IMG/VR virus record: IMGVR_UViG_3300046501_000082
Location: 28,875-92,874 of that record
Strand: one strand, 5' to 3'
From: a virus
Length of the DNA stretch: 64,000 nucleotides
This document shows, one piece after another, positions 1,621 through 63,900 of the stretch (positions are counted from its first letter, which is position 1; every line of letters starts with the position of its first letter). Made by a program: the position numbers and the translations under genes. The notes beneath the pieces were generated by a model. That model was given only the letters and a program-made list of their open reading frames with translations. It had not been told where the DNA came from and ran no database searches.

Positions 1621-3051
1621 TTATTTTAGACGATAGGTGCCACTAACAACAGCCCCAGTCTGAGAGCCAGCAGATGTGAATGCAGCATTCAGGAACAGAG
1701 ATTCACTGACAGCACCACCAAAACCGACTGCTACAGCATGATAGCCACCCATCGTTGCACCAGACAAAGCAACCTGTGGACCAGCTTGGTAGTCTGTAGA
1801 GAACTGATGACCTGCAACTGCAAGAGCACCTACAGCAATATTACCAACTTTATTCAAATCACGTTTCAGACTTGTAATCTCAGATTGCTGACTATCCAGA
1901 CGACCACTCAAGCGAGTATCCATGTCACGGCTGTAGTCTTCAATGTTGGTGATACGTGTCTCATGGTTAGAGAGTTGTTTGGTGTTACTGCTAAGTTGAA
2001 CACTCTGTTGCTGCTGTACTTCACCAAGAGTCACAATGTTATTTGTGTTTGACTGGATCTGTGTAGTGTGCTGACTAAGTGTATTACCTTGTGCCGTTAC
2101 AACTTCATTAGTAGATTTAATATCAGAGCTATTCTTACTAATGTCAGTAGTATTTTTAGCAATAGAAACTGTGTTAGCAGCTCCAATACTCAATGCAACG
2201 TTAGCCGTACTCTGTGCGTTTTCAGCCTTAGTATTTACACTAGAAAGCTGTCCTTGCACCTGTGTATTTGTGTTAGTCTGGTTACTATTTACAAAACTTT
2301 GATTATTGTTGATGGTGGTCTGTGCAGAGTTGATAGAAGTCTGCACACTAATAGCAGTATTCACTTTATCATCAACAGCTTTAACATTGTTGTTAGTCTT
2401 AGTGAATTCAGCAGCACCTTGTGAGGCAACACTATCAATCTTATCATTCAAGCCTGTGGCAATAGCAACGCCAGCAGCCTTAGTTGCTTGAAGGTCAGCG
2501 TTAACACTTGAGACAGCACCGTTAGTTTCACGGATAGCGTTCTCTGCGCCATCAAGACGTACAGCATTGTTAATAGAACGATCATCTGTTACAGCCAATG
2601 ATTTCTCAATACCGTCTGCACGAACTGCGTTAGCATCTACTTTAGTCTCTACAGTGTCTAGACGGACTTCTGTTTTATCAACCCGTAGATTTGTGTTAGC
2701 ATTGTCAGTCTTCAATTCTGTGTAAGCTGCTGCACCTTGAGCGGCGTAAGAGTCTACTTTGTTGTTCAAGTTGGATACGTTTGTATTGGTTTGATTGAGA
2801 TTACTTTGAACCTTATCAGCAGCTTTCAAAGCACTCTCACCTACTCGGATACCGAGATTAGCAGAGTTCTGTGCATCAAATGCTTTAGTACGGGCATCAT
2901 TAGCAACATAAGCTGTGTCTGCAAGGTTGTTGTTAGCCTCCTTTAGTTGAGACTGTGTGACATGGTTGAACGGGTTTGTCAAATCAATGCCAGTGGCAAA
3001 GGCTTGTGTGGAAGCAATCGTGATAGCTACAGCGAGGATCGTTTGTTTCAT
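1621..3051 (-). CDS. Trimeric autotransporter adhesin (YadA-like): signal peptide, coiled-coil stalk, membrane anchor
   Basis: Sec signal MKQTILAVAITIASTQAFA; Asn-rich heptads and RxD motifs; C-terminal anchor pattern IAVGALAVA...GGYHAVAVGFGG...GAVVSGTYRLK. Confidence 0.8.
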   Translation of the reverse strand: MKQTILAVAITIASTQAFATGIDLTNPFNHVTQSQLKEANNNLADTAYVANDARTKAFDAQNSANLGIRVGESALKAADKVQSNLNQTNTNVSNLNNKVDSYAAQGAAAYTELKTDNANTNLRVDKTEVRLDTVETKVDANAVRADGIEKSLAVTDDRSINNAVRLDGAENAIRETNGAVSSVNADLQATKAAGVAIATGLNDKIDSVASQGAAEFTKTNNNVKAVDDKVNTAISVQTSINSAQTTINNNQSFVNSNQTNTNTQVQGQLSSVNTKAENAQSTANVALSIGAANTVSIAKNTTDISKNSSDIKSTNEVVTAQGNTLSQHTTQIQSNTNNIVTLGEVQQQQSVQLSSNTKQLSNHETRITNIEDYSRDMDTRLSGRLDSQQSEITSLKRDLNKVGNIAVGALAVAGHQFSTDYQAGPQVALSGATMGGYHAVAVGFGGAVSESLFLNAAFTSAGSQTGAVVSGTYRLK

Positions 3052-3146: not shown

Positions 3147-4115
3147 CTATGCTGTCTTATACATTTCATAAGCTGGTGTAAAGCTACCGTCTAAGTTTGC
3201 TTTCGCATACTCAACAATACTACGCTCAAAAAATGATCCAAACGTCTTGCCCATCATTGCATCAATCCAAGGAAGAGGGTTTTCTCTAACGTTCCAGTTC
3301 TTCTTAAAGCCTAGCTGTTGAAGACGGTAATCAGCTACGTATCGAACATACTTTTTAACATCTTCTTTAACTAGGTTACTAACGCCACCCATTTTAAAGA
3401 TTCGATCAACAAAGGCATCTTCTAATTTAACAAGTTCTCGTGCTGAAGAGTAGATGTCCTTCTTAAACTCATCATTTACAATCCGAGGATGCTCATCTAA
3501 AAAGATGCGAAACAATGCAGTGTTACCTTCTACGTGAATTGACTCATCAACCATGCTCCACCGAACAATGTCACACATTCCGGGAAGCTTCCCAAGACGG
3601 TCAAAGTTCAGCAGAATAGCGAAAGATGCAAACAAACTTACACCTTCCATCATTGTCTGTTTAGCTAAATACTTTGCAAAGTCTGTATGGCTTTTACCAA
3701 TACTCTCAATCATGTACTCATGCTTTTCTTTCATTTCTACATAATCAAGAAACTCATGATAAAAGCTTTCGCCAAAACCCATTGTATCCGAGAACAAAGC
3801 ATATGCACGAATATGAGTACCTTCCCTAGCAGCAAAGCTCCCTAACATAGAACGTGCTTCGTTGTTCTTGATGTAAGGAATAATCTTGTCGTAGTAGCCC
3901 CCGCCAACATTGACATCTGACTGAGTGAACAAACGAAAGATATTAGATGTCAGGTTCTTTTCTTCAGGTAGAATCTTACCATTTTTCCACTGCTCTACAT
4001 CATTGTTCAGCTTGGCTTCATGCTCATACCAATGCACTTTCTCATGCTTAATATTAATATCCACCAAGCTGTGGTACTTTGGCGAATAAATTTCGCTGTA
4101 TTCTGTGAGGCTCAT
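3147..4115 (-). CDS. nrdB: Ribonucleotide reductase class Ia beta subunit
   Basis: FTQSD, EGTHIRAY (radical Tyr), EGVSLFASF, DESIH diiron motifs; C-terminal FFE. Confidence 0.95.
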   Translation of the reverse strand: MSLTEYSEIYSPKYHSLVDINIKHEKVHWYEHEAKLNNDVEQWKNGKILPEEKNLTSNIFRLFTQSDVNVGGGYYDKIIPYIKNNEARSMLGSFAAREGTHIRAYALFSDTMGFGESFYHEFLDYVEMKEKHEYMIESIGKSHTDFAKYLAKQTMMEGVSLFASFAILLNFDRLGKLPGMCDIVRWSMVDESIHVEGNTALFRIFLDEHPRIVNDEFKKDIYSSARELVKLEDAFVDRIFKMGGVSNLVKEDVKKYVRYVADYRLQQLGFKKNWNVRENPLPWIDAMMGKTFGSFFERSIVEYAKANLDGSFTPAYEMYKTA

Positions 4116-15147: not shown

Positions 15148-16574
15148 ATTTAATTTTCTCTATTTGGTGTGTATTAAGTTTTGTTCACATTATTGTGAGA
15201 TATTACCTTGCTATTTGTATCACTACAAATTCTTTTAGTGCATTGTTTCTTTCTTCTTAACCCGTGTATTCACAATAGGACTTCCTTCTTCATCACCTTC
15301 CAAATCTTCTGTGCTCGACTGAAAGTCACCATCCCCTGTAAACATCTGTGCAAACTCTGTAGCACTTTCACGCTTATAATCTTCCCAAGCAAAGAAGTCT
15401 GAAGCTGATTCAAAAGAATATTCAGTTTCATAAATCAAGGCTTGAAGAGTTTCTTTAGTTTTAACTTTTACGCCTGCCATATTAGCGTACTTGCCGTTGA
15501 GACTGCAATTGATAGACACTCTGTACAATCTTAGCCTTCGGATAACCTTGACGCTTCACCAATGCAAGTTCATCACGAGCCTCAGAACGTGTCTCAAGAT
15601 CAGTTACAATGGCTTCTTGTGCAGCAATGATGGAATAGGTGTAGATAGTTTTAGTGCCCATTTTGTTTCTCCTAGATTAAATTATTTGTTTACAGACATT
15701 GCTTTTGGATCAAAGTAACCTACAAACCAAGGATAATAATCATCGTCATTATCTGTACCGATGGATACTACCACTTCATTAGTAGTTGTGTCTACTAGAT
15801 CAAGGATCGAACAAGATTTACTTGTCCAGTCTTCTTCAGGATCACCGCTTCGAGTTCGATAAACTCCCTTAACTTCTACACCACTGAAAGGGTTTTTAAT
15901 TTCCTCCTCATCAATTTTTAGTTCGCCTAAGTAACTCCGATAACCATCACTCGGATCTTCCATGGCTACATATACAACACCATCAAGTTTAAAGCGAATA
16001 CACTGACAAGCTTCAAAGTAATCATCCCACTTTTTAATGCTCCCTGTGTACTCGTCAACACCTTGAAGCTGCATCACTCTGCCATGAAAATACTCCGTAT
16101 CCATCACTTCCCCTCCTGCACTTTATTCAAATATTCCTGAAACAGTTGTGCAGCAACCACTCCATACGAAGGCTCCCTACCATTCAACTTCTCACTAACG
16201 TGACGCATAGCTGTGTCATAAGAAGATTCGAATGAAGAGGGATCATTTGTGTACTGGTCCATCCACATGTTGAAGGCTGCTGCGTAATCAGGTACTTGCT
16301 CGCCTACATCCGTACCGTTCAGTTCATCGATAATTCTTGCAGATGTCTCCACCACATCTTGTGCAGAATTACCATAGACTACCACCTTACTGTGCCATGT
16401 ATTGCTATTTTCCTCTACGAAGTCGACACCAGCCTCAAAAATACCCGATTCGTTTTCTCCGTGAAGATCACCTTGTTTGTACATCATTTCTCTCCTCTTC
16501 TCATTAGCTAAGAACATTCTGTTCAATTAGCTTGCGGCTATTGTGAAGCAATTTTATGGGGTTGTCAAGGTTTA

Positions 16575-19908: not shown

Positions 19909-21555
19909 TTAAAAATCATCTGGAACTTCCTGAGCAAGCAATACTGCCCAAGTGTTTTCATCAATAGTAAATTCATCAGCAACACCTAGGTAACTCCACG
20001 GGCGATTCTTCAGAACAGTGAGGCGAACATTACCACGGCTTCGATCTGGCATAATCTGAGGCTCCAAACCAATAATGACAAAGCTCAATTGCTCCAGCGC
20101 AGAACTCCCGCGCATCATTTCCTTTGAAACTTTAACCCAAAACGGTTTGTCTTCATTTCCTTTTGGAGCTTTGAACTGTTCAGCGGCACTCCGGTTAATA
20201 TGGCTAACCGCAATAACACAAACATCATTGGCTGCACAGAATGCAGCAAGTTCAGTCATAACAATATCAAGTTCTTTACGCTCATCTGTTACATGACTTC
20301 CTGAAATAACCATACTCAAGTGGTCAATAAGAATAAACTTACAACCTTCAACCAAGTGCATATGTTTGACTTTGTTCATAAGCTCACTTACTGGCAAACT
20401 CCCAAAGTGGCCCAACATTACCAGCAAGTCATTATCTACGATTTCATCACGAGCTTGTGTGATCTGTTCGAGTGTTGCAGATTCCAAAGGTTTGTCTTTA
20501 AACTTCAAGTAACTTACTTTCAACTTAGATGCAATCAATCGTTGCATTGTTTCTTTATTACTTTCTTCCAAGTAAATCATACCAAGCTTTTCACCAGACG
20601 CCATAAAAGAACTGGCAAAAATAGATGTAACAGTTGATTTACCAACACCCGAGGGACTGGTGAGCAAAACTAGCTCGCGCATACGAAACCCATGAAGCTT
20701 ATCCATAAGCTTAGGGAATTCATTTACATACACACCCTCTGGCCGTGGCTCAAGCAACTCTTCAATGCTGATGTCAGATGCCTTAACAATCTTTTCAGCA
20801 GAATAAGCCCGTTTACCAAACTGAATAAGTTTAGCCAAGTCTTCGGCCCGATTAGCTTGCAAGTAATCAGAAGCATCTTTGAAACCGTCTGCTGGCACCA
20901 CTGTCATTAAAGACAAACCTGAGCCAACCAATGCGCTAGCAACAGCTTCACGGGCTTCATGGCCCTTCATAACGCCCTTCTTTGTTTCTGCTGGTGTGCA
21001 GTAATCATCATCAAAGAAAATAGTTAGGCTGTCGTGGCTCTTTACATATTCTTCATTGTGAAGCAAAGCTTCTACAGCATTAGCAGTACCGAGAGGGATA
21101 GAAACAACGAGTGGCTCAAGCCCCTCAAACTTTGTACCTTTTACATTATCGACAGCCGCCTGCCATACACTAACACAGTCCCATTGGCCTTCTGTCGTAA
21201 TAAGATTAGTCCGTTTTCGATTGGTATTTTCTGCAACTTCTTGGCCAAACAATTTGTTGCCAATAGAGACACTGCCAACAGCAGTCCAGTGACCTTTCTC
21301 GTCTTTTCCTTTAGTCACATCTTGTTTAGTGTAGCCAACAACTTTACCTTTCTGGTTATAGGAAGGGAAATAGAAAGATTCTGGTGTCTTACCATCTTTT
21401 TCAGAGACAGCAACTTTAACACCAAAGCGTTCAAGAGTAGCTTTACGTACTCCACGGTCTGGTGCATCGAATGTTGCGTATTTATTTACTTCATCAACTG
21501 TTTCTTTTGTAAAAACTTCCACTTCTCTCTCCTTCAATTTTTTGAAATAACTCAC
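19909..21555 (-). CDS. DNA primase (TOPRIM)-helicase (SF4) fusion
   Basis: TEGQWD, FFDDD, KDASD; Walker A SPSGVGKS; LIDHLS, VSHINR, RGSS, KNR. Confidence 0.93.
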   Translation of the reverse strand: MSYFKKLKEREVEVFTKETVDEVNKYATFDAPDRGVRKATLERFGVKVAVSEKDGKTPESFYFPSYNQKGKVVGYTKQDVTKGKDEKGHWTAVGSVSIGNKLFGQEVAENTNRKRTNLITTEGQWDCVSVWQAAVDNVKGTKFEGLEPLVVSIPLGTANAVEALLHNEEYVKSHDSLTIFFDDDYCTPAETKKGVMKGHEAREAVASALVGSGLSLMTVVPADGFKDASDYLQANRAEDLAKLIQFGKRAYSAEKIVKASDISIEELLEPRPEGVYVNEFPKLMDKLHGFRMRELVLLTSPSGVGKSTVTSIFASSFMASGEKLGMIYLEESNKETMQRLIASKLKVSYLKFKDKPLESATLEQITQARDEIVDNDLLVMLGHFGSLPVSELMNKVKHMHLVEGCKFILIDHLSMVISGSHVTDERKELDIVMTELAAFCAANDVCVIAVSHINRSAAEQFKAPKGNEDKPFWVKVSKEMMRGSSALEQLSFVIIGLEPQIMPDRSRGNVRLTVLKNRPWSYLGVADEFTIDENTWAVLLAQEVPDDF

Positions 21556-55596: not shown

Positions 55597-56915
55597 AATG
55601 AACATCCCAGACGAAGTAGTTAAAATTGAAATTAGCCACAACACAATCCCAGCAAATCCTTACACAGCAACATATTGTGTATTGGTTAATGCCACAGTTG
55701 AGGAAGTGATTGAGTGCGCAGAGAAGTATCCAAAGGCGTTTGTGTTTACATTTGATACAACTCCAGTAGACAGGATAAAGCAAGATACGCTGGATTACAC
55801 ACCGCTACAGCCTGTTATTGAAGAATACATGGATGAAGATGGTGATATCATGCACCGATATGCAGAGGGTAGCTATAAACCTTGGATGGAGCGTTTAGTG
55901 CAGCGTTTGTATATTGGGAATTTCAAAGCTGAAGATCATAAGACTGCTATTGATCAGTTTGTGGAAAACAGTATTGGTAAAGATCAGGAATTAATTTATT
56001 CAAAAGGTTACAATAAATGAATGAATTGGACGAGGTATGTAAAATACAGCAAATAAGCCGTATATATTATGGCTGTGAACTCAAACCTTGTGATTGGGTT
56101 GTCTGGAATGACGAAAGACAATTATGGATTGAAACCGACGAACATTTTAGGAACAGGATAAGAAATGAAATACAAATTCCATGAACTAGAACCAAGCTAT
56201 GAGCTTTCCTCTGATGGTCGTAAATGGCCTGAAGAGGCTTGCAACAATACATGGAAGCTATTTAGAAAAGAAATCAACTGGATTGCCAAGAATCTAGACA
56301 AGGATGTTAATAAGTTTAAAGTGGACGATATGACATTTGGTGATCCTGTTGTATTTTATGATGGGAAATACTTCGGGTATCTTTTGGATGATTTCTATTA
56401 TGCAATGGATATAGACGATTGGGATAGTTATTGGTTGTTTGATAATTGAGGGTAAGAAATGAGTAACTATCAAGATTGGTATGACTCTGAGGTTGAAAAA
56501 TATAATCCAAACACAGCCGTTGCCGGTAATCTCGACAGAATTGGCAGCCTGTGTGGGATTGAAAGAAGCTCTTCTAATCAACTACTAGAAGATGATAATA
56601 GTTTCAGAAAAAGAATCTTAGAAGAAACTAGCATTATACTTGACAAATAACTGTTGCTTATGGTTTACTAACAACTTGAAATAACAACCAAGGAGTCCAC
56701 AAGAATGGGCAACGAAAACTATTGCCCTGATTGTGGGGCTGAAGAAAAAGATTGTGTATGTTTCTTTGAAGAAAGTGCTGAAGAGTTTGTTGATGGATGC
56801 TTCCGTTGGGAATACCAACATGAAGGAATTAGTCATTATGGAACACTTTTCAAGAAAGTGATGCCTGATCGTGATAGTTAAAATCAATAAATGTACACAA
56901 TCTGATAGAAATATA

Positions 56916-56943
56916 TTGACAATAAGAAATAAGTCTGTATAAT
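56916..56943 (+). promoter_or_regulatory. Consensus sigma70 promoter upstream of the ncRNA/tRNA region
   Basis: TTGACA-16-TATAAT. Confidence 0.75.
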
Positions 56944-57074
56944 AGTAAACGTGAATCATTGCACAAAAGGAGAAAATAAAATGAAAGAAGAATACGAAGG
57001 CTTCATTGATAGTTGGGAAGATTACATTGGTGCTGAAGAAATTAGTTCAGTAGAAACAATTTAAAGAACACATT

Positions 57075-57572
57075 CAATCTTGACGAGGGTTGTCTAATTC
57101 CCTTTAAGGGGCTTGAAAGAATTCTGACGAGAGTTTAAAGTCTTCCATTGTGTGACTGGGAGCAATGAATTCTGTTAAGAAAACCATAACCTCTACGCCT
57201 ATCATTGAAGCGCACCAAGAGGTTTCTTAGTTTTACAAGCCAGAGGGATACACTTTGTGTATTGCTTGAAAGGTTGGGCACTACTTAGGGCACACAGTAA
57301 AGCGATGTAGAGTCTTTATTTGTCTGTCTCCAACACAGCTTGTACTTGTTTCACCCGACATCATACAAGTCTAAATTCTTTTAAGATTGATGTCTTCAAA
57401 CTGTCAGTGTTTTCTCTCCTTCCACTGACAACTTAAAGAGTGTCTGCCCTCTCCCAGATATCTCTTCGCATTTTCCCTAGGTGCTCTCCTCACTTGGGAA
57501 AATGCTTTCTTAAGTCCTATTACCGTTTATTAACGAACTGCAATGTTTATTGCTGATAGGCTTTAAGAAATC
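57075..57572 (+). ncRNA. Putative structured non-coding RNA with CUCUCC(U) hairpin loops
   Basis: No ORF; consecutive hairpins, three with CTCTCC loops (57402-57430, 57436-57466, 57468-57505). Confidence 0.6.
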
Positions 57573-57581
57573 TATTTCAAT

Positions 57582-57653
57582 TGGCTGATAGTGAAACGGT
57601 TATCACATGTCCCTTTGACGGACACATTCTCTGTTCGAATCAGAGTCGGTCGG
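57582..57653 (+). tRNA. tRNA-Gln (UUG), CCA not encoded
   Basis: Cloverleaf: D arm GTGA/TCAC, anticodon arm TGTCC-CTTTGAC-GGACA, T arm CTCTG-TTCGAAT-CAGAG. Confidence 0.85.
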
Positions 57654-57677
57654 CCTGCCAAACAAAAGGTGTTTAAT

Positions 57678-58085
57678 ATGTCAAATAAGAAGCCCACACA
57701 AACTGATAAGTCTCGTGCTACACAGTTCGACGGAGAAAAGTCAAATCGTAACACCAAAGGCAATTCCTCTACTCGAATCCAAAAGAGTAAACTGCGTGAT
57801 CTTGCAGACAAATTGATTGAAAGACAAGAGATTGCTTTGCAACTTATCGATAAGAGTCTTAAGAGTGAAGCTGTGGACCCCGATGCAGTATCAAGCGCAA
57901 AGTGGGTTATACAAAGCATCAATTCGGTTGTGAAAAGTGCTAGCGCAGAAGAGCTTGGTTCATTCAATGCACGTCTCAAAGGCAAGCGAGATGATGAACT
58001 TGAAGAGCAGACTCCTAAAGAGATTGCTGCTGAGTTGAAACCACGTCTTAGTTTGGTGTATGTTGATCCAGATGAAGACGAGTAA
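57678..58085 (+). CDS. Putative terminase small subunit-like protein (start MSNKKPT)
   Basis: QF.G..SN.N.KG N-terminal motif resembling DUF5681/TerS-like proteins; lies upstream of terL. Confidence 0.4.
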   Translation: MSNKKPTQTDKSRATQFDGEKSNRNTKGNSSTRIQKSKLRDLADKLIERQEIALQLIDKSLKSEAVDPDAVSSAKWVIQSINSVVKSASAEELGSFNARLKGKRDDELEEQTPKEIAAELKPRLSLVYVDPDEDE

Positions 58086-60917: not shown

Positions 60918-61310
60918 TTGATACACTTCATCCTCAAGATTAAGAACAGAGGAGAATTTAAAGTGAGTAATAAATATATTGCATATGTAACTGGTAGTGA
61001 TGCTATTGGTTATTCGTTTATGAAGAATGTTGTAGAGCTTGCTCAGAAAGGGGCAACTCTTCAGGAAGGTAAAGTTCCTTGTCTACGTTTTCCTCATTCA
61101 GCTTTCATGGAATTTGAAACTGATGAGTTGATGGAAGATAAACCGGGATTTAGGTATCAGATTGTTTGTGAAAATCTTACACGCGAGCAGCTTGACGATC
61201 TTGAGTGGGAAGCTTTTAAAAAGCAACTTAAACGTCAGTTCGGTATTGGTGGGAGAAACCGAGAGCAGATGACTCGTGAGTATTTGAAAGCTTCTGGTCA
61301 GGAAGAATAA
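60918..61310 (+). CDS. Hypothetical phage protein (likely GTG start near 60963)
   Basis: SD GAGGAG precedes GTG. Confidence 0.6.
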   Translation: MIHFILKIKNRGEFKVSNKYIAYVTGSDAIGYSFMKNVVELAQKGATLQEGKVPCLRFPHSAFMEFETDELMEDKPGFRYQIVCENLTREQLDDLEWEAFKKQLKRQFGIGGRNREQMTREYLKASGQEE

Positions 61311-61343
61311 AACAATTTAATTAACTAGCATGGGAGAATTCAC

Positions 61344-62099
61344 ATGGCTAACAAAGTTGGAAACTATCGCAAAACTTATGATCAGTTCTATGAGTCGAAT
61401 GGCTACGGCACACTTGAGGTGCTAGGACGGGCTGAGGGAAGTAAGAAGTTGCGTGTTAGGTTTGTTAACACCGGGTACGAAACAATTGCCGAAGCGGGTA
61501 ATGTGCTTGCTGGAAAGGTAAGAGATTTTAGTGTACCCCGGGCAAATACACATGATTGGCAAGCTTGGGATGAAGACTTTACCAATAATGCCGGATTCAG
61601 CGGTAAGATCATCAGTAAGAAAGCCAGTAAGTGTGTTGTGCAGTTTAATGAGACTGGGTATACAACAACCGTAGAAATTCATAATGTTCGTAAGGGTAAG
61701 ATTTCAGATCCTTATAGCAAGACATTCTTGGATATCGGTTACTTGGGTGAATACGAACTTCTACCTTATTGGAAACAAGCTAAACAGCTTTGGTCTAATA
61801 TGATGAAACGTTGTTATAACCCAAAAGATTATATGGGCTATTTTGGTCGTTGCTTTGTTGATGCCCGTTGGCACTGTTTTGCAAACTTTCTTACTGACAT
61901 TTCTAAACTTGAAAACTTTGAGATGTGGCTTAATGCCAGTGAGACAGGACTTAAATACAATCTTGATAAAGATTTAAAAGTTCCAGATAACAAAGTGTAC
62001 TCACGAGAGCTTTGCATGTTTGTGACTGAGTATGAAAATAAGTCAGCAGGAGCAGTTAATGCCCGTGCATTAGATAAGGTAAACGGTAGATATGTCTGA
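61344..62099 (+). CDS. Free-standing HNH-type homing endonuclease overlapping the terL start
   Basis: WSNMMKRCY, W.CFANF, LDKD...YSRELCMFV...N; two N-terminal repeats. Confidence 0.85.
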   Translation: MANKVGNYRKTYDQFYESNGYGTLEVLGRAEGSKKLRVRFVNTGYETIAEAGNVLAGKVRDFSVPRANTHDWQAWDEDFTNNAGFSGKIISKKASKCVVQFNETGYTTTVEIHNVRKGKISDPYSKTFLDIGYLGEYELLPYWKQAKQLWSNMMKRCYNPKDYMGYFGRCFVDARWHCFANFLTDISKLENFEMWLNASETGLKYNLDKDLKVPDNKVYSRELCMFVTEYENKSAGAVNARALDKVNGRYV

Positions 62100-62190
62100 C
62101 GATAATGTTGTATCGCCAGCCAGCCCCAAGCAAGCAGCCTTTCTCAAGGCTGTTTCAGAAAATGATATAGTCCTCTTCGGAGGCGCGGCT
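62092..62190 (+). CDS. terL: Terminase large subunit exon 1 (not in ORF track)
   Basis: MSDDNVVSPASPKQAAFL...VLFGGAA; joins GSGKS to form Walker A. Confidence 0.9.
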
Positions 62191-62423
62191 TAACACTATG
62201 GGTCGCGTAAAACCCCTCTAATTGCTGGAACTCTCAAAGAGACAATCAGCAGCGAAGGCTTAGAAATAAGTAACGTTCAGAGACTATCGAAAAGACACTT
62301 TAAAGTGGAACTTAGTAGAGTAGGTTGCAAGTGCAATCGAAACGGGGGGCAACTTAATAGTTGAAGATATAGTCCGATTCTTTCAGCAATGGAAGGAAGT
62401 TTAACGAACTTCATAAGTATTTG
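62191..62423 (+). ncRNA. Group I intron 1 in terL (233 nt, ORF-less)
   Basis: P1 GCGGCU/GGUCGC with U-G; AAUUGCUGGAA, AAUCAGCAGC, UCAGAGACUA, GAUAUAGUCC; terminal G. Confidence 0.93.
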
Positions 62424-63641
62424 GGTAGTGGTAAAAGTTATCTGGGGGTAATGGCTTTTCTTCAGTGGGCACAAGATCCCGCTATGGAAAAGTTTCGTGG
62501 AGTTATTCTGCGAAGGACGATGGTCCAAGTGACAGGCCCCGGCGGTCCGGCTGAGACTGGACAAGAGATTTACCAACAGTTTGGTGCTCAGTTTAAAATT
62601 AAAGACAGTAAATTTATTTTTCCGAATAAAGCTACTATTGTTTGTAAGGGCTGTGAGCAAGAGAAAGATAAGCATAACTTCCAAGGCTGGCAAGTTAGTG
62701 CATTTCTAGTTGACGAGGCTCAGCAGTTCGAAGAAAGTCAAGTGCTTTATTTCATCTCGCGGATGCGTACAGCAGCACCAATGAAGCCTGTGATGATGAT
62801 GACGGCGAACCCTGATTATAACAGCTACCTCCGTAAGTGGCTAGAAGATGCAGGGTATTTGGATGAACGTGGCCTCCCTCGTAAAGATCGTGATGGTAAA
62901 CGTATGTGGTTCATCCGTATAGACAACCAAATGGTCTGGAATGAATCAAAGGAAGAGTTACTTGCGACCTACGGTGAAAACTGTGGTCCTATGTCATTCG
63001 TTTTCCTGCCTGCAAATTGTCACGATAATCCAGTTTTGCTTCGACGTGATCCATCCTACGCCCATAAACTTATGAATATGCCTCGCGTAGAAATGGAACG
63101 CCTTTACCTCGGCTCGTGGTATGCGAAAGAATCTACAAGTGGCTTCTTTAAGAAAGAGTTTTGTACTCCCGTAAAACTACACGAACAGAATATCGTCTCT
63201 TACTGCCGTGCGTGGGATATCGCCGGAAGTTTGCCCAGTGAGGCTATGCCAAATCCTGATGCAACAGCTGGCGTCTTGATAGCTAAGACAAAATCTGGAA
63301 GATATATTGTTGTGGATGTAGTTAGGTTCAAAGCTAGGTTTGGTGAAGTCATGCAACGTATGATTGAAACTGCCAAATCAGATCCTGAAGGAACTCAGAT
63401 TCTTCTACCTCAAGAGCCTGGCCAAGCCGGAAAAGCAGCAGGTCAAATGATGATTAAAGAACTCCTTGAAGAAGGGTTCTATGCTCGCATGCGTCCAACT
63501 AACAAGTCTAAGGTAGTTCGTTTCCAACCCTTCGCAGCAGCAGCCGAAGCTGGCCTTGTTGACTATGTAGAAGATGCTTGGAACGATGTTTACTTCGACG
63601 AGTTGGAGCAATTTGACGGAAGTCGAAAAAATAAAGACGAT
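62424..63641 (+). CDS. terL: Terminase large subunit exon 2
   Basis: GSGKS, VDEAQQF, TANP, AWDIA nuclease motif, ends KNKDD. Confidence 0.93.
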
Positions 63642-63900
63642 TTACTAATCTTGGTCGTCTATAAACCCATTGAATTCGGTGGACATCTCATTAGAGACAA
63701 TACCGAGCGAAGCTAGAGAAATCTAGAACGTGTAACGACTATCGAAAACACACAGTAATGTGGAAGTGAGTAGAGTAGGGTCAAGTGACCCGAAGCGGTG
63801 GGCAAACAATTTTGTTTGAAGATATAGTCTCCTCTATATAGTGATATATAGCAGTCCCAATGGACTGAATAAGAATTAACGACTCTTATTTAAGATGATG
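63642..63900 (+). ncRNA. Group I intron 2 in terL (259 nt, ORF-less)
   Basis: P1 GACGAU/GUCGUC with U-G; GAAUUCGGUGG, AAUACCGAGC, GUAACGACUA, GAUAUAGUCU; terminal G. Confidence 0.93.

Follow-up and report, generated by a model that had tools for sequence, protein, structure and literature searches.

We describe here a conserved structured RNA, almost certainly genuine, that is encoded next to a tRNA gene of the IMG/VR virus record IMGVR_UViG_3300046501_000082, a 92,874-bp sequence bounded by direct terminal repeats. The RNA lies within the final 64 kb of that record, and this stretch of 64,000 nucleotides is referred to below as the window. The RNA module spans ~223 nt of the plus strand (57348-57570) and is composed of a single-stranded leader, a hairpin P0, three adjacent hairpins P1-P3, which form its core, and a branched element P4. 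Each core hairpin displays a loop made up entirely of pyrimidines and carrying the word UCUCC, the complement of a common form of the Shine-Dalgarno (SD) sequence, GGAGA. Its carriers are uncultured phages of ~90 kb that form a clade, and the RNA lies beside their tRNA genes. We tentatively propose that it is a processed phage RNA whose redundant anti-SD loops would lower the translation of GGAGA-type mRNAs, a reading that we consider quite possible and the likeliest of those weighed below.

The RNA fold of 57395-57515 has a free energy (dG) of -39.9 kcal/mol, compared with -18.9 ± 3.0 kcal/mol for dinucleotide shuffles (z = -7.0; 0 of 200 shuffles equal it), and resolves three hairpins with all-pyrimidine loops at 57402-57505, exactly where a preliminary description of the sequence had placed three hairpins with a shared loop core. 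That three-hairpin unit is not the whole RNA, as P0 and P4 had been left out. The UUUCUU after P3 may mark a leaky intrinsic terminator or the point at which the RNA ends. Pyrimidine-loop hairpins occur in the whole 92.9-kb genome about as often as expected from its composition (17 seen, 16.2 expected from shuffles), and the idea of a dispersed repeat was dropped since the genome holds no more of them than chance outside P1-P3. In a genome-wide scan, P1-P3 are the only such hairpins with the word CTCTCC and all others are solitary, so the hairpin cluster is unique in the genome.

Table 1. Coordinates of the RNA module and of the features around it (positions in the window)
Feature	Positions	Strand	Description	Basis
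Sigma-70 promoter	56916-56943	+	TTGACA, 16 nt, TATAAT; 12/12 consensus positions	
27-codon leader open reading frame (ORF)	56981-57064	+	MKEEYEGF... (MKEEYEGFIDSW...); strong SD GGAGAAAA; between promoter and RNA region	
Single-stranded leader	57348-57356	+	GUUUCACC(C); 5′ boundary of module; near-invariant among members	
P0 hairpin	57357-57394	+	GACATCA/TGATGTC; A/U-rich loop of ~24 nt	covariation
P1 hairpin	57402-57430	+	29 nt, 8 bp; stem TGTCAGTG/CACTGACA; DNA loop TTTTCTCTCCTTC = RNA loop UUUUCUCUCCUUC, 13 nt	fold and covariation
P2 hairpin	57436-57466	+	31 nt; one bulge; base (U)UAAAGA/UCUUU conserved; DNA loop CCCTCTCC = RNA loop CCCUCUCC, 8 nt	fold and covariation
P3 hairpin	57468-57505	+	38 nt, 15 bp, one bulge; loop CUCUCCU (DNA CTCTCCT), 7 nt; then UUUCUU	fold and covariation
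P4	57506-57570	+	long AU-rich stem UUUCUUAAG.../...CUUUAAGAAA (relatives: ...CUUAAGAAA) around two small hairpins; conserved UAUU-G junction	
tRNA-Gln (UUG)	57582-57655	+	ARAGORN; Rfam tRNA 48.4 bits; 11 nt downstream of P4	
135-aa basic protein gene	57678-58085	+	conserved downstream neighbour of module; family not assigned	

Relatives of the 135-aa basic protein encoded downstream of the RNA are found on 13 viral contigs (contigs are cited below by L numbers), and the module lies upstream of the gene in 13 of 13. These upstream regions contain the leader GUUUCACC, P0, two to four pyrimidine-loop hairpins with CUCUCC-like cores, and P4; even in the raw sequences it is visible that the stems are unrelated between phages and that the loops are pure pyrimidine. 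A DNA pattern scan of IMG/VR, with chance matches removed by folding, yielded 14 further contigs. A covariance model of P0-P3 (R1) matches all 13 protein-defined and all pattern-defined contigs, which gives 27 contigs including the window. The genome studied here has one copy of the module, and of five complete relatives searched whole with R1, two have one match each and three have none at the threshold used.

Covariation in this family is pervasive. Across 27 distinct rows of the model-based alignment, compensatory double changes are seen in 38 of 38 modelled pairs of P0-P3, and standard pairs occupy 92.7% of the P0-P3 cells. Sliding the 3′ partners by 1-3 columns lowers this share to 38-45%, and none of the observed measures is attained in 500 shuffles. 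The observed figures are somewhat inflated by the fitting of the alignment to the covariance model. All four helices contribute, with compensatory changes in 7/7 pairs of helix 1 (P0; 93.9% of cells paired), 9/9 of helix 2 (P1; 94.1%), 11/11 of helix 3 (P2; 89.5%) and 11/11 of helix 4 (P3; 94.7%). A covariance model of P4 (R2) matches directly after P3 in every member; 95.5% of its cells are paired over 22 distinct sequences, with compensatory changes in mid-stem, and the base of the stem (UUUCU/AGAAA) and the UAUU-G junction are conserved in sequence. RNAalifold predicted no structure from a MAFFT alignment of P4 owing to a one-column register shift; the covariance model resolved the element. 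This support is about as strong as comparative analysis allows, and the RNA, which is absent from Rfam, merits a family model whatever its function.

The loops were counted in 20 distinct canonical members, which together provide 60 of them. Their pyrimidine runs are 6-18 nt long, are pure pyrimidine in every member and stay unpaired in the minimum free energy folds of all members. CUCC is found in 58/60 loops, UCUCC in 56/60 and CUCUCC in 48/60; the core of the ribosomal 16S anti-SD, CCUCC, is present in only 8/60. From these counts, the loops appear to be under sequence selection, with the stems left free, and the combination of variable stems and fixed loops that the preliminary description had proposed to look for in relatives is indeed found. 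The selected word is (C)UCUCC, the complement of GGAGA(G), and not a copy of the ribosomal tail, because UCUCC so greatly outnumbers CCUCC; this difference leads one to expect that the RNA would be selective among ribosome-binding sites (RBSs), favouring a single subclass.

The same counts bear on the possibility that the RNA mimics the 3′ tail of 16S rRNA and decoys a factor that acts on the anti-SD (RMF, Era, a KsgA-type protein or an anti-SD-cleaving toxin or defence nuclease), thereby protecting or reprogramming ribosomes. The loops match the anti-SD in sense and are exposed as single strands, and phage RNA decoys against RNA-targeting defence are known, as in the case of pseudo-ToxI. The scarcity of the real core, however, speaks against mimicry, as does the 16S-tail flanking context, GAUCA or CCUCCUUA, which is found in 0 of the 60 loops. 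We therefore consider a 16S-tail decoy very improbable, and the RMF decoy put forward in the preliminary description finds no evidence here.

The number of pyrimidine-loop hairpins varies from two (L010, L012) through three in most members to four (L015, L064, L081), and P3 reaches ~60 nt in some relatives. In the four-hairpin members (L015 4724-5019, L064 153-446, L081 4364-4660) another 5′ domain takes the place of P0, and in the two-hairpin members (L010 3763-3902, L012 3739-3894) the hairpins follow another conserved hairpin, ACACATACCA...GGTATGTG. Individual hairpins have moved between phages. The window and L051 have an identical P0 and different P1-P3, L051 and L078 have P1 in common and differ in all else, and L024 and L074 share P0-P3 and differ in P4; exchange of this kind is seen among L051, L078, L044, L024, L074 and the window. 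The transfer of hairpins as cassettes points to frequent recombination inside the module and suggests that each hairpin may be an independent unit. A weak second match to the P0-P3 model in L078 (53-214, plus strand; 17.3 bits, E 0.058), ~4.2 kb upstream of the true copy, is probably due to chance, as its loops are not pyrimidine tracts.

Outside this clade, the pattern scan gave 27 matches in 185,579 bacterial and archaeal species genomes, compared with ~19 expected by chance, and none was confirmed by R1; this shows no prophage or host copy in the scanned genomes, at a pattern sensitivity of about one-third of the known members. Cultured phages gave no match to the module of the window or of a relative (blastn), nor to the 135-aa neighbour (tblastn).

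The strand of the RNA can be read from its wobble pairs, because G-U and U-G pairs on one strand read as A-C mismatches on the opposite strand. The P0-P3 cells contain 83 G-U/U-G pairs versus 18 A-C/C-A, and P4 contains 34 G-U pairs versus 8 A-C mismatches; this excess identifies the plus (gene) strand as the RNA strand. With the P4 model, eight seed sequences score 73-87 bits in forward orientation versus 29-37 in reverse, and the other members appear only in forward orientation among the matches listed. In all 27 copies the module also runs in the direction of the tRNAs and of the gene that follows. On these grounds we hold it to be virtually certain that the plus strand is the RNA. The preliminary description had also suggested that a minus-strand transcript, whose loops would read AGGAGAG, could act as a sponge for CsrA/RsmA in the manner of RsmY/Z. 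The GGA that it would display in hairpin loops is the CsrA binding motif, yet GGA occurs in loops of the minus strand only, the consensus sigma-70 matches include none on the minus strand that is directed at the module, and the wobble asymmetry, the model scores and the shared orientation of all copies disfavour such a sponge, which we take to be extremely improbable.

The module is closely tied to tRNA genes. As had been described, the hairpins stand on the strand of the promoter at 56916 and just ahead of a tRNA. In five relatives (L002, L009, L043, L051, L053) the module begins at the base right after the CCA end of an ARAGORN-called tRNA. A tRNA precedes it by 9 nt in L024, and L014 and L046 have, directly ahead of the module, a sequence ending in CCA for which ARAGORN calls no tRNA. 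Because the module abuts tRNAs, tRNA 3′ and 5′ processing would define the ends of the RNA. The leader GUUUC also resembles RNase E sites, such as the GUUUCC to which RNase E cleavage has been mapped for the 5′ end of CcsR1 (PMC8034643). We envisage that the plus strand would be transcribed from the sigma-70 promoter, which most likely drives the RNA cluster, as a poly-RNA transcript together with the tRNAs, and that the RNA would then be excised by tRNA-processing enzymes and probably RNase E; in the window, an RNase P cut at the 5′ end of tRNA-Gln would free its 3′ end. Release by tRNA processing, as the preliminary description had it, is thus plausible from the exact abutment in relatives, with the cleavages themselves predicted. 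Further tRNA-like sequences that ARAGORN does not call are located just after P4 in L003 (3876-3955), L009 (3868-3950) and L007 (~3780-3880), with sub-threshold Rfam matches to tRNA-Sec (33.9 bits) and tRNA (26.4 bits), and may be unusual or decaying phage tRNAs.

This arrangement would also suit a cis element of the tRNA/late-gene transcript, concerned with processing, termination, stability or put-like antitermination and having no target in trans. Here, P3 with UUUCU would serve as a leaky terminator, P4 as an RNase III-type or protective hairpin and GUUUC as an RNase E site. The module is always preceded by a strong promoter or tRNAs and followed by genes of the same strand, UUUCU always follows P3, the base of P4 is conserved in sequence, and the abutment to tRNA ends is exact, all of which such an element would account for. 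Processing signals, however, leave three same-word loops on free stems unexplained, P3 is not called by a simple terminator scan, and the interval that separates the module from the following gene differs in length and make-up, holding a tRNA, homing-endonuclease-like ORFs or, in L011, 3 kb of genes. We consider a purely cis-acting role distinctly improbable.

Other non-tRNA RNAs are known from phage tRNA clusters. The species 1 and 2 RNAs of the T4 tRNA cluster (rnaC/rnaD) are stable non-tRNAs freed by tRNA-processing enzymes, and resemble the module, compared by description only, in being non-tRNA RNAs within a phage tRNA cluster; to our knowledge, their function is still unknown and pyrimidine-loop hairpins are not among their described features. 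ROOL and GOLLD are structured non-coding RNAs that often occur by tRNA genes in phages and prophages. They share with the module their tRNA-adjacent position in phages and differ from it in their far larger size (~580-800 nt) and complex folds; both are in Rfam and neither is matched here. In Rfam 15, the window and eight relatives gave no family at threshold, and permissive runs returned only tRNAs and a sub-threshold ar14; ROOL, GOLLD, hammerhead and sX13 were without match at E up to 1-10.

The closest known design is that of the cuckoo/ar14 RNAs, which include NfeR1 of Sinorhizobium and CcsR1-4 (RSs0680a-d) of Rhodobacter. These RNAs have 2-4 adjacent hairpins with CCUCCUCCC in each loop and highly variable stems (PMC4615179). 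In a 301-nt search, ar14 (RF02344) is the best Rfam match of 57396-57507, at 19.8 bits versus a gathering threshold of 58.8 (E 0.089), and the match aligns end to end, three hairpins and a U tail, with P3 placed on the ar14 terminator hairpin. A 3.5-kb search of the window gave no ar14 match at E up to 1, and the best relative (L013) reached 23.4 bits with E 3.1; all scores thus lie below the 58.8 bits of the family. The published architecture requires 2-4 hairpins of at least 6 bp and 24-50 nt each, with linkers of at most 10 nt and no multiloop (PMC4615179), and P1-P3 conform to it, being 29, 31 and 38 nt long with 5 nt between P1 and P2 and 1 nt between P2 and P3. As in the cuckoo RNAs, there is one pyrimidine anti-SD-like word per loop, the stems are free and a U run follows the last hairpin. 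The loops differ: ar14 members present CCUCCUCCC in loops of 9-27 nt, whereas the window has UCUCC in loops of 13, 8 and 7 nt (compared with CCUCCUCCC itself).

The setting is likewise different. Members of ar14 are found in Alphaproteobacteria (Rhizobiales, Rhodobacterales), often with a DUF1127 ORF beside them, whereas 27 of 27 copies of the phage RNA are on viral contigs; it occurs in lytic-type phages, inside a tRNA cluster and not on alphaproteobacterial chromosomes, and adds P0, the branched P4 and the leader GUUUCACC. Judged from its sequence and predicted structure, the phage RNA shares the cuckoo design and falls outside ar14 by its score, loop word, taxon and context, and homology is no likelier an explanation of the resemblance than convergence. 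A design of tandem hairpins with one loop word and free stems, familiar from alphaproteobacterial chromosomes, would here be found in viruses and coupled to tRNA processing.

The cuckoo RNAs also offer a precedent for function. The three anti-SD loops of NfeR1 are functionally redundant and silence ntrB by pairing at the translation initiation region, redundant loop seeds occluding RBSs (PMC10746234). CcsR RNAs share a transcript with a small ORF, from which RNase E frees them at GUUUCC-like sites, and the small co-transcribed protein of that system, CcaF1, binds the RNA (PMC8034643). Other C/U-rich small RNAs (sRNAs) that block RBSs are LhrC of Listeria (three CU-rich sites), RNAIII of Staphylococcus (UCCC loops), sX13 of Xanthomonas and RepG of Helicobacter (PMC4132741; PMC4615179). 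They resemble the phage RNA in having several C/U-rich single-stranded sites, mostly in hairpin loops, that pair with G-rich SDs; they are unlike it in being unrelated in sequence and host-encoded, with UCCC or CCCC motifs and not UCUCC, and gave no Rfam match here. The multivalent anti-SD RNA of the preliminary description therefore has a tested bacterial precedent (NfeR1 and the cuckoo family, PMC10746234, PMC4615179) as well as ar14 as its best sub-threshold Rfam match, and translational silencing is the predicted outcome.

On the model of the three CCUCCUCCC loops of NfeR1, the three pyrimidine loops (UCUCC/CUCUCC) would act as redundant anti-SD seeds that pair with (A)GGAGA(G) RBSs and reduce translation. 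The seed expected of an anti-SD sRNA, single-stranded and complementary to RBSs, is present, since UCUCC is unpaired and GGAGA stands at 41 of the ~171 genes of this genome, whose starts were called crudely. The GGAG core is found at 76/171 genes, and GGAGA is its commonest extension. The GGAGAG SD, which had been described as frequent, is found at only 9-11 of ~171 genes; it is the shorter GGAGA that is frequent, and the individual GGAGAG sites that had been listed (near 16495, 24601, 44890, 51540 and 52708) are all there, just upstream of start codons. Twelve AGGAGAG sites occur in the genome, two of which are the antisense of the RNA's own loops; nine of the other ten lie just upstream of a start codon, among them that of the primase gene, with whose SD (21526-21535) loop 1 could pair over 10 nt. 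This match, also singled out in the preliminary description, is present as described and is not conserved as a target in five genomes.

Since the loop word fits GGAGA better than the CCUCC of the ribosome does, the RNA should compete best at the GGAGA subclass of SDs. This subclass is unevenly distributed in the phage: GGAGA SDs precede 28/68 replication and nucleotide-metabolism genes (41%) versus 6/37 genes of the structural block (16%; Fisher p 0.009). Predicted pairing to CCUCUCCU averages -8.5 kcal/mol for non-structural and -6.5 kcal/mol for structural genes (p 1e-4), whereas the corresponding values for a generic 16S tail, which may not be that of the host, are -7.6 to -8.1 and -7.6 kcal/mol. 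Four complete relatives point in the same direction for orthologous classes, with GGAGA at 24-46% of non-structural versus 4-21% of structural genes. Targets may be drawn from the phage's own replication and nucleotide-metabolism genes, with host mRNAs equally possible.

Several points weigh against this reading. In the four relatives, pairing with the 16S tail is likewise stronger for non-structural genes, and the difference between loop and 16S pairing is significant only in the genome studied here (p 3e-4; relatives p 0.06-0.26), so the class bias is partly explained by the stronger SDs of non-structural genes; the genes of the five genomes are, moreover, homologous and hence not independent, and their starts are crude. 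A CopraRNA-style ranking across the five complete genomes revealed no recurrent top-ranked ortholog group, the best mean percentile of 0.18 being about that of chance. Together with the class bias, this null ranking fits a broad pairing biased towards one SD class and indicates no specific conserved phage target. A pyrimidine seed of 5-7 nt is unspecific, the loops, of 6-18 nt and pure pyrimidine, suit a pyrimidine-tract-binding protein equally well, and the conserved P0 and P4 have no role in an anti-SD model. Finally, no RNA run is listed among the sequencing runs that hold the sequence, and the DNA runs that hold it all have small word shares.

Some of these points would be accommodated if the pyrimidine loops served instead to titrate a protein that binds C/U-rich RNA, such as S1, a cold-shock protein, Rho (through YC dinucleotides), Hfq or a phage protein, for example the 135-aa neighbour. 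P0 and P4 would then add affinity or stability. Selection for a pyrimidine tract as such would account for the variation in run length, the search for a conserved mRNA target came out empty, the gene of the 135-aa basic protein is a constant downstream neighbour, and the cuckoo system provides a precedent in CcaF1, which binds the RNA of that system (PMC8034643). A sponge does not, however, explain why the word UCUCC itself is kept in so many loops and is the exact complement of the commonest SD form, and Pfam and PHROG searches found no RNA-binding domain in the neighbours. We regard a protein sponge, taken as a whole, as unlikely.

If the RNA does act on RBSs, its effect could be as broad as the null ranking suggests. 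It is tempting to speculate, although we think it rather unlikely, that this clade of lytic phages encodes a stable, multivalent ‘counter-ribosome’ RNA, freed from the tRNA precursor, whose three UCUCC loops out-compete the 16S tail at GGAGA RBSs, forming a global, RNA-only switch that needs no protein factor. Such a switch would turn down replication-phase and/or host genes in favour of structural genes. The take-over of host translation by phages is known mainly through proteins and tRNAs, and an anti-SD RNA with several loops would add an RNA-only layer to it.

The surroundings of the module are conserved in part. L002 and L011/L051 share the promoter block (56903-56955) at 81-88% identity. 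The start of the leader ORF is kept in L038 (88% over 56980-57028), and in L005 the ORF is shortened to 8 codons (MNEEYEGF, then a stop); it matched no Pfam family and could encode either a leader peptide or a small protein made from the transcript of the RNA, in an arrangement comparable with CcaF1-CcsR. Neither Pfam nor PHROG assigns the 135-aa neighbour to a family, and in the protein atlas it falls only in unnamed viral clusters, the sole lead being a weak one to DUF5681, borne by 10% of one such cluster.

No gene is called in 57065-57581, which holds just short ORFs of 33-48 aa on either strand, and its first ~280 nt (57065-57347) are further non-coding sequence between the leader ORF and the module. 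Within these, 57067-57171 is 89.6% identical to L014 3109-3213, located upstream of a tRNA-Asn in that contig, and 57319-57347 matches L014 3080-3108, so that the order is permuted. Other relatives have different conserved blocks at this position, one common to L003 and L007 and another to L005 and L012. The segment resembles a patchwork of further small RNA modules or of remnants of tRNAs. Hammerhead-like words (CUGACGAG) in this upstream spacer received no Rfam support and were set aside.

By its large terminase, the phage is closest among cultured phages to Felix-O1-like Pseudomonas myoviruses (47% identity). Minus-strand gene clusters encode RNR, ThyX, a 5′-3′ exonuclease and PhoH, and the plus-strand block downstream of the RNA encodes a tail-fibre-like protein and the terminase. 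A 476-aa protein (1621-3051, minus strand), noted earlier as a YadA-like trimeric autotransporter, matched nothing in Pfam at E up to 0.001, and so neither supports a diderm host nor informs on the host envelope. The large terminase ORF (62421-63716) covers only profile positions 176-588 of phrog_979, and an HNH endonuclease gene (61344-62099) is located just upstream of it. Within 60963-63716, the terminase gene appears to be interrupted by a homing-endonuclease-bearing insertion, either an intron or an intein-less split.

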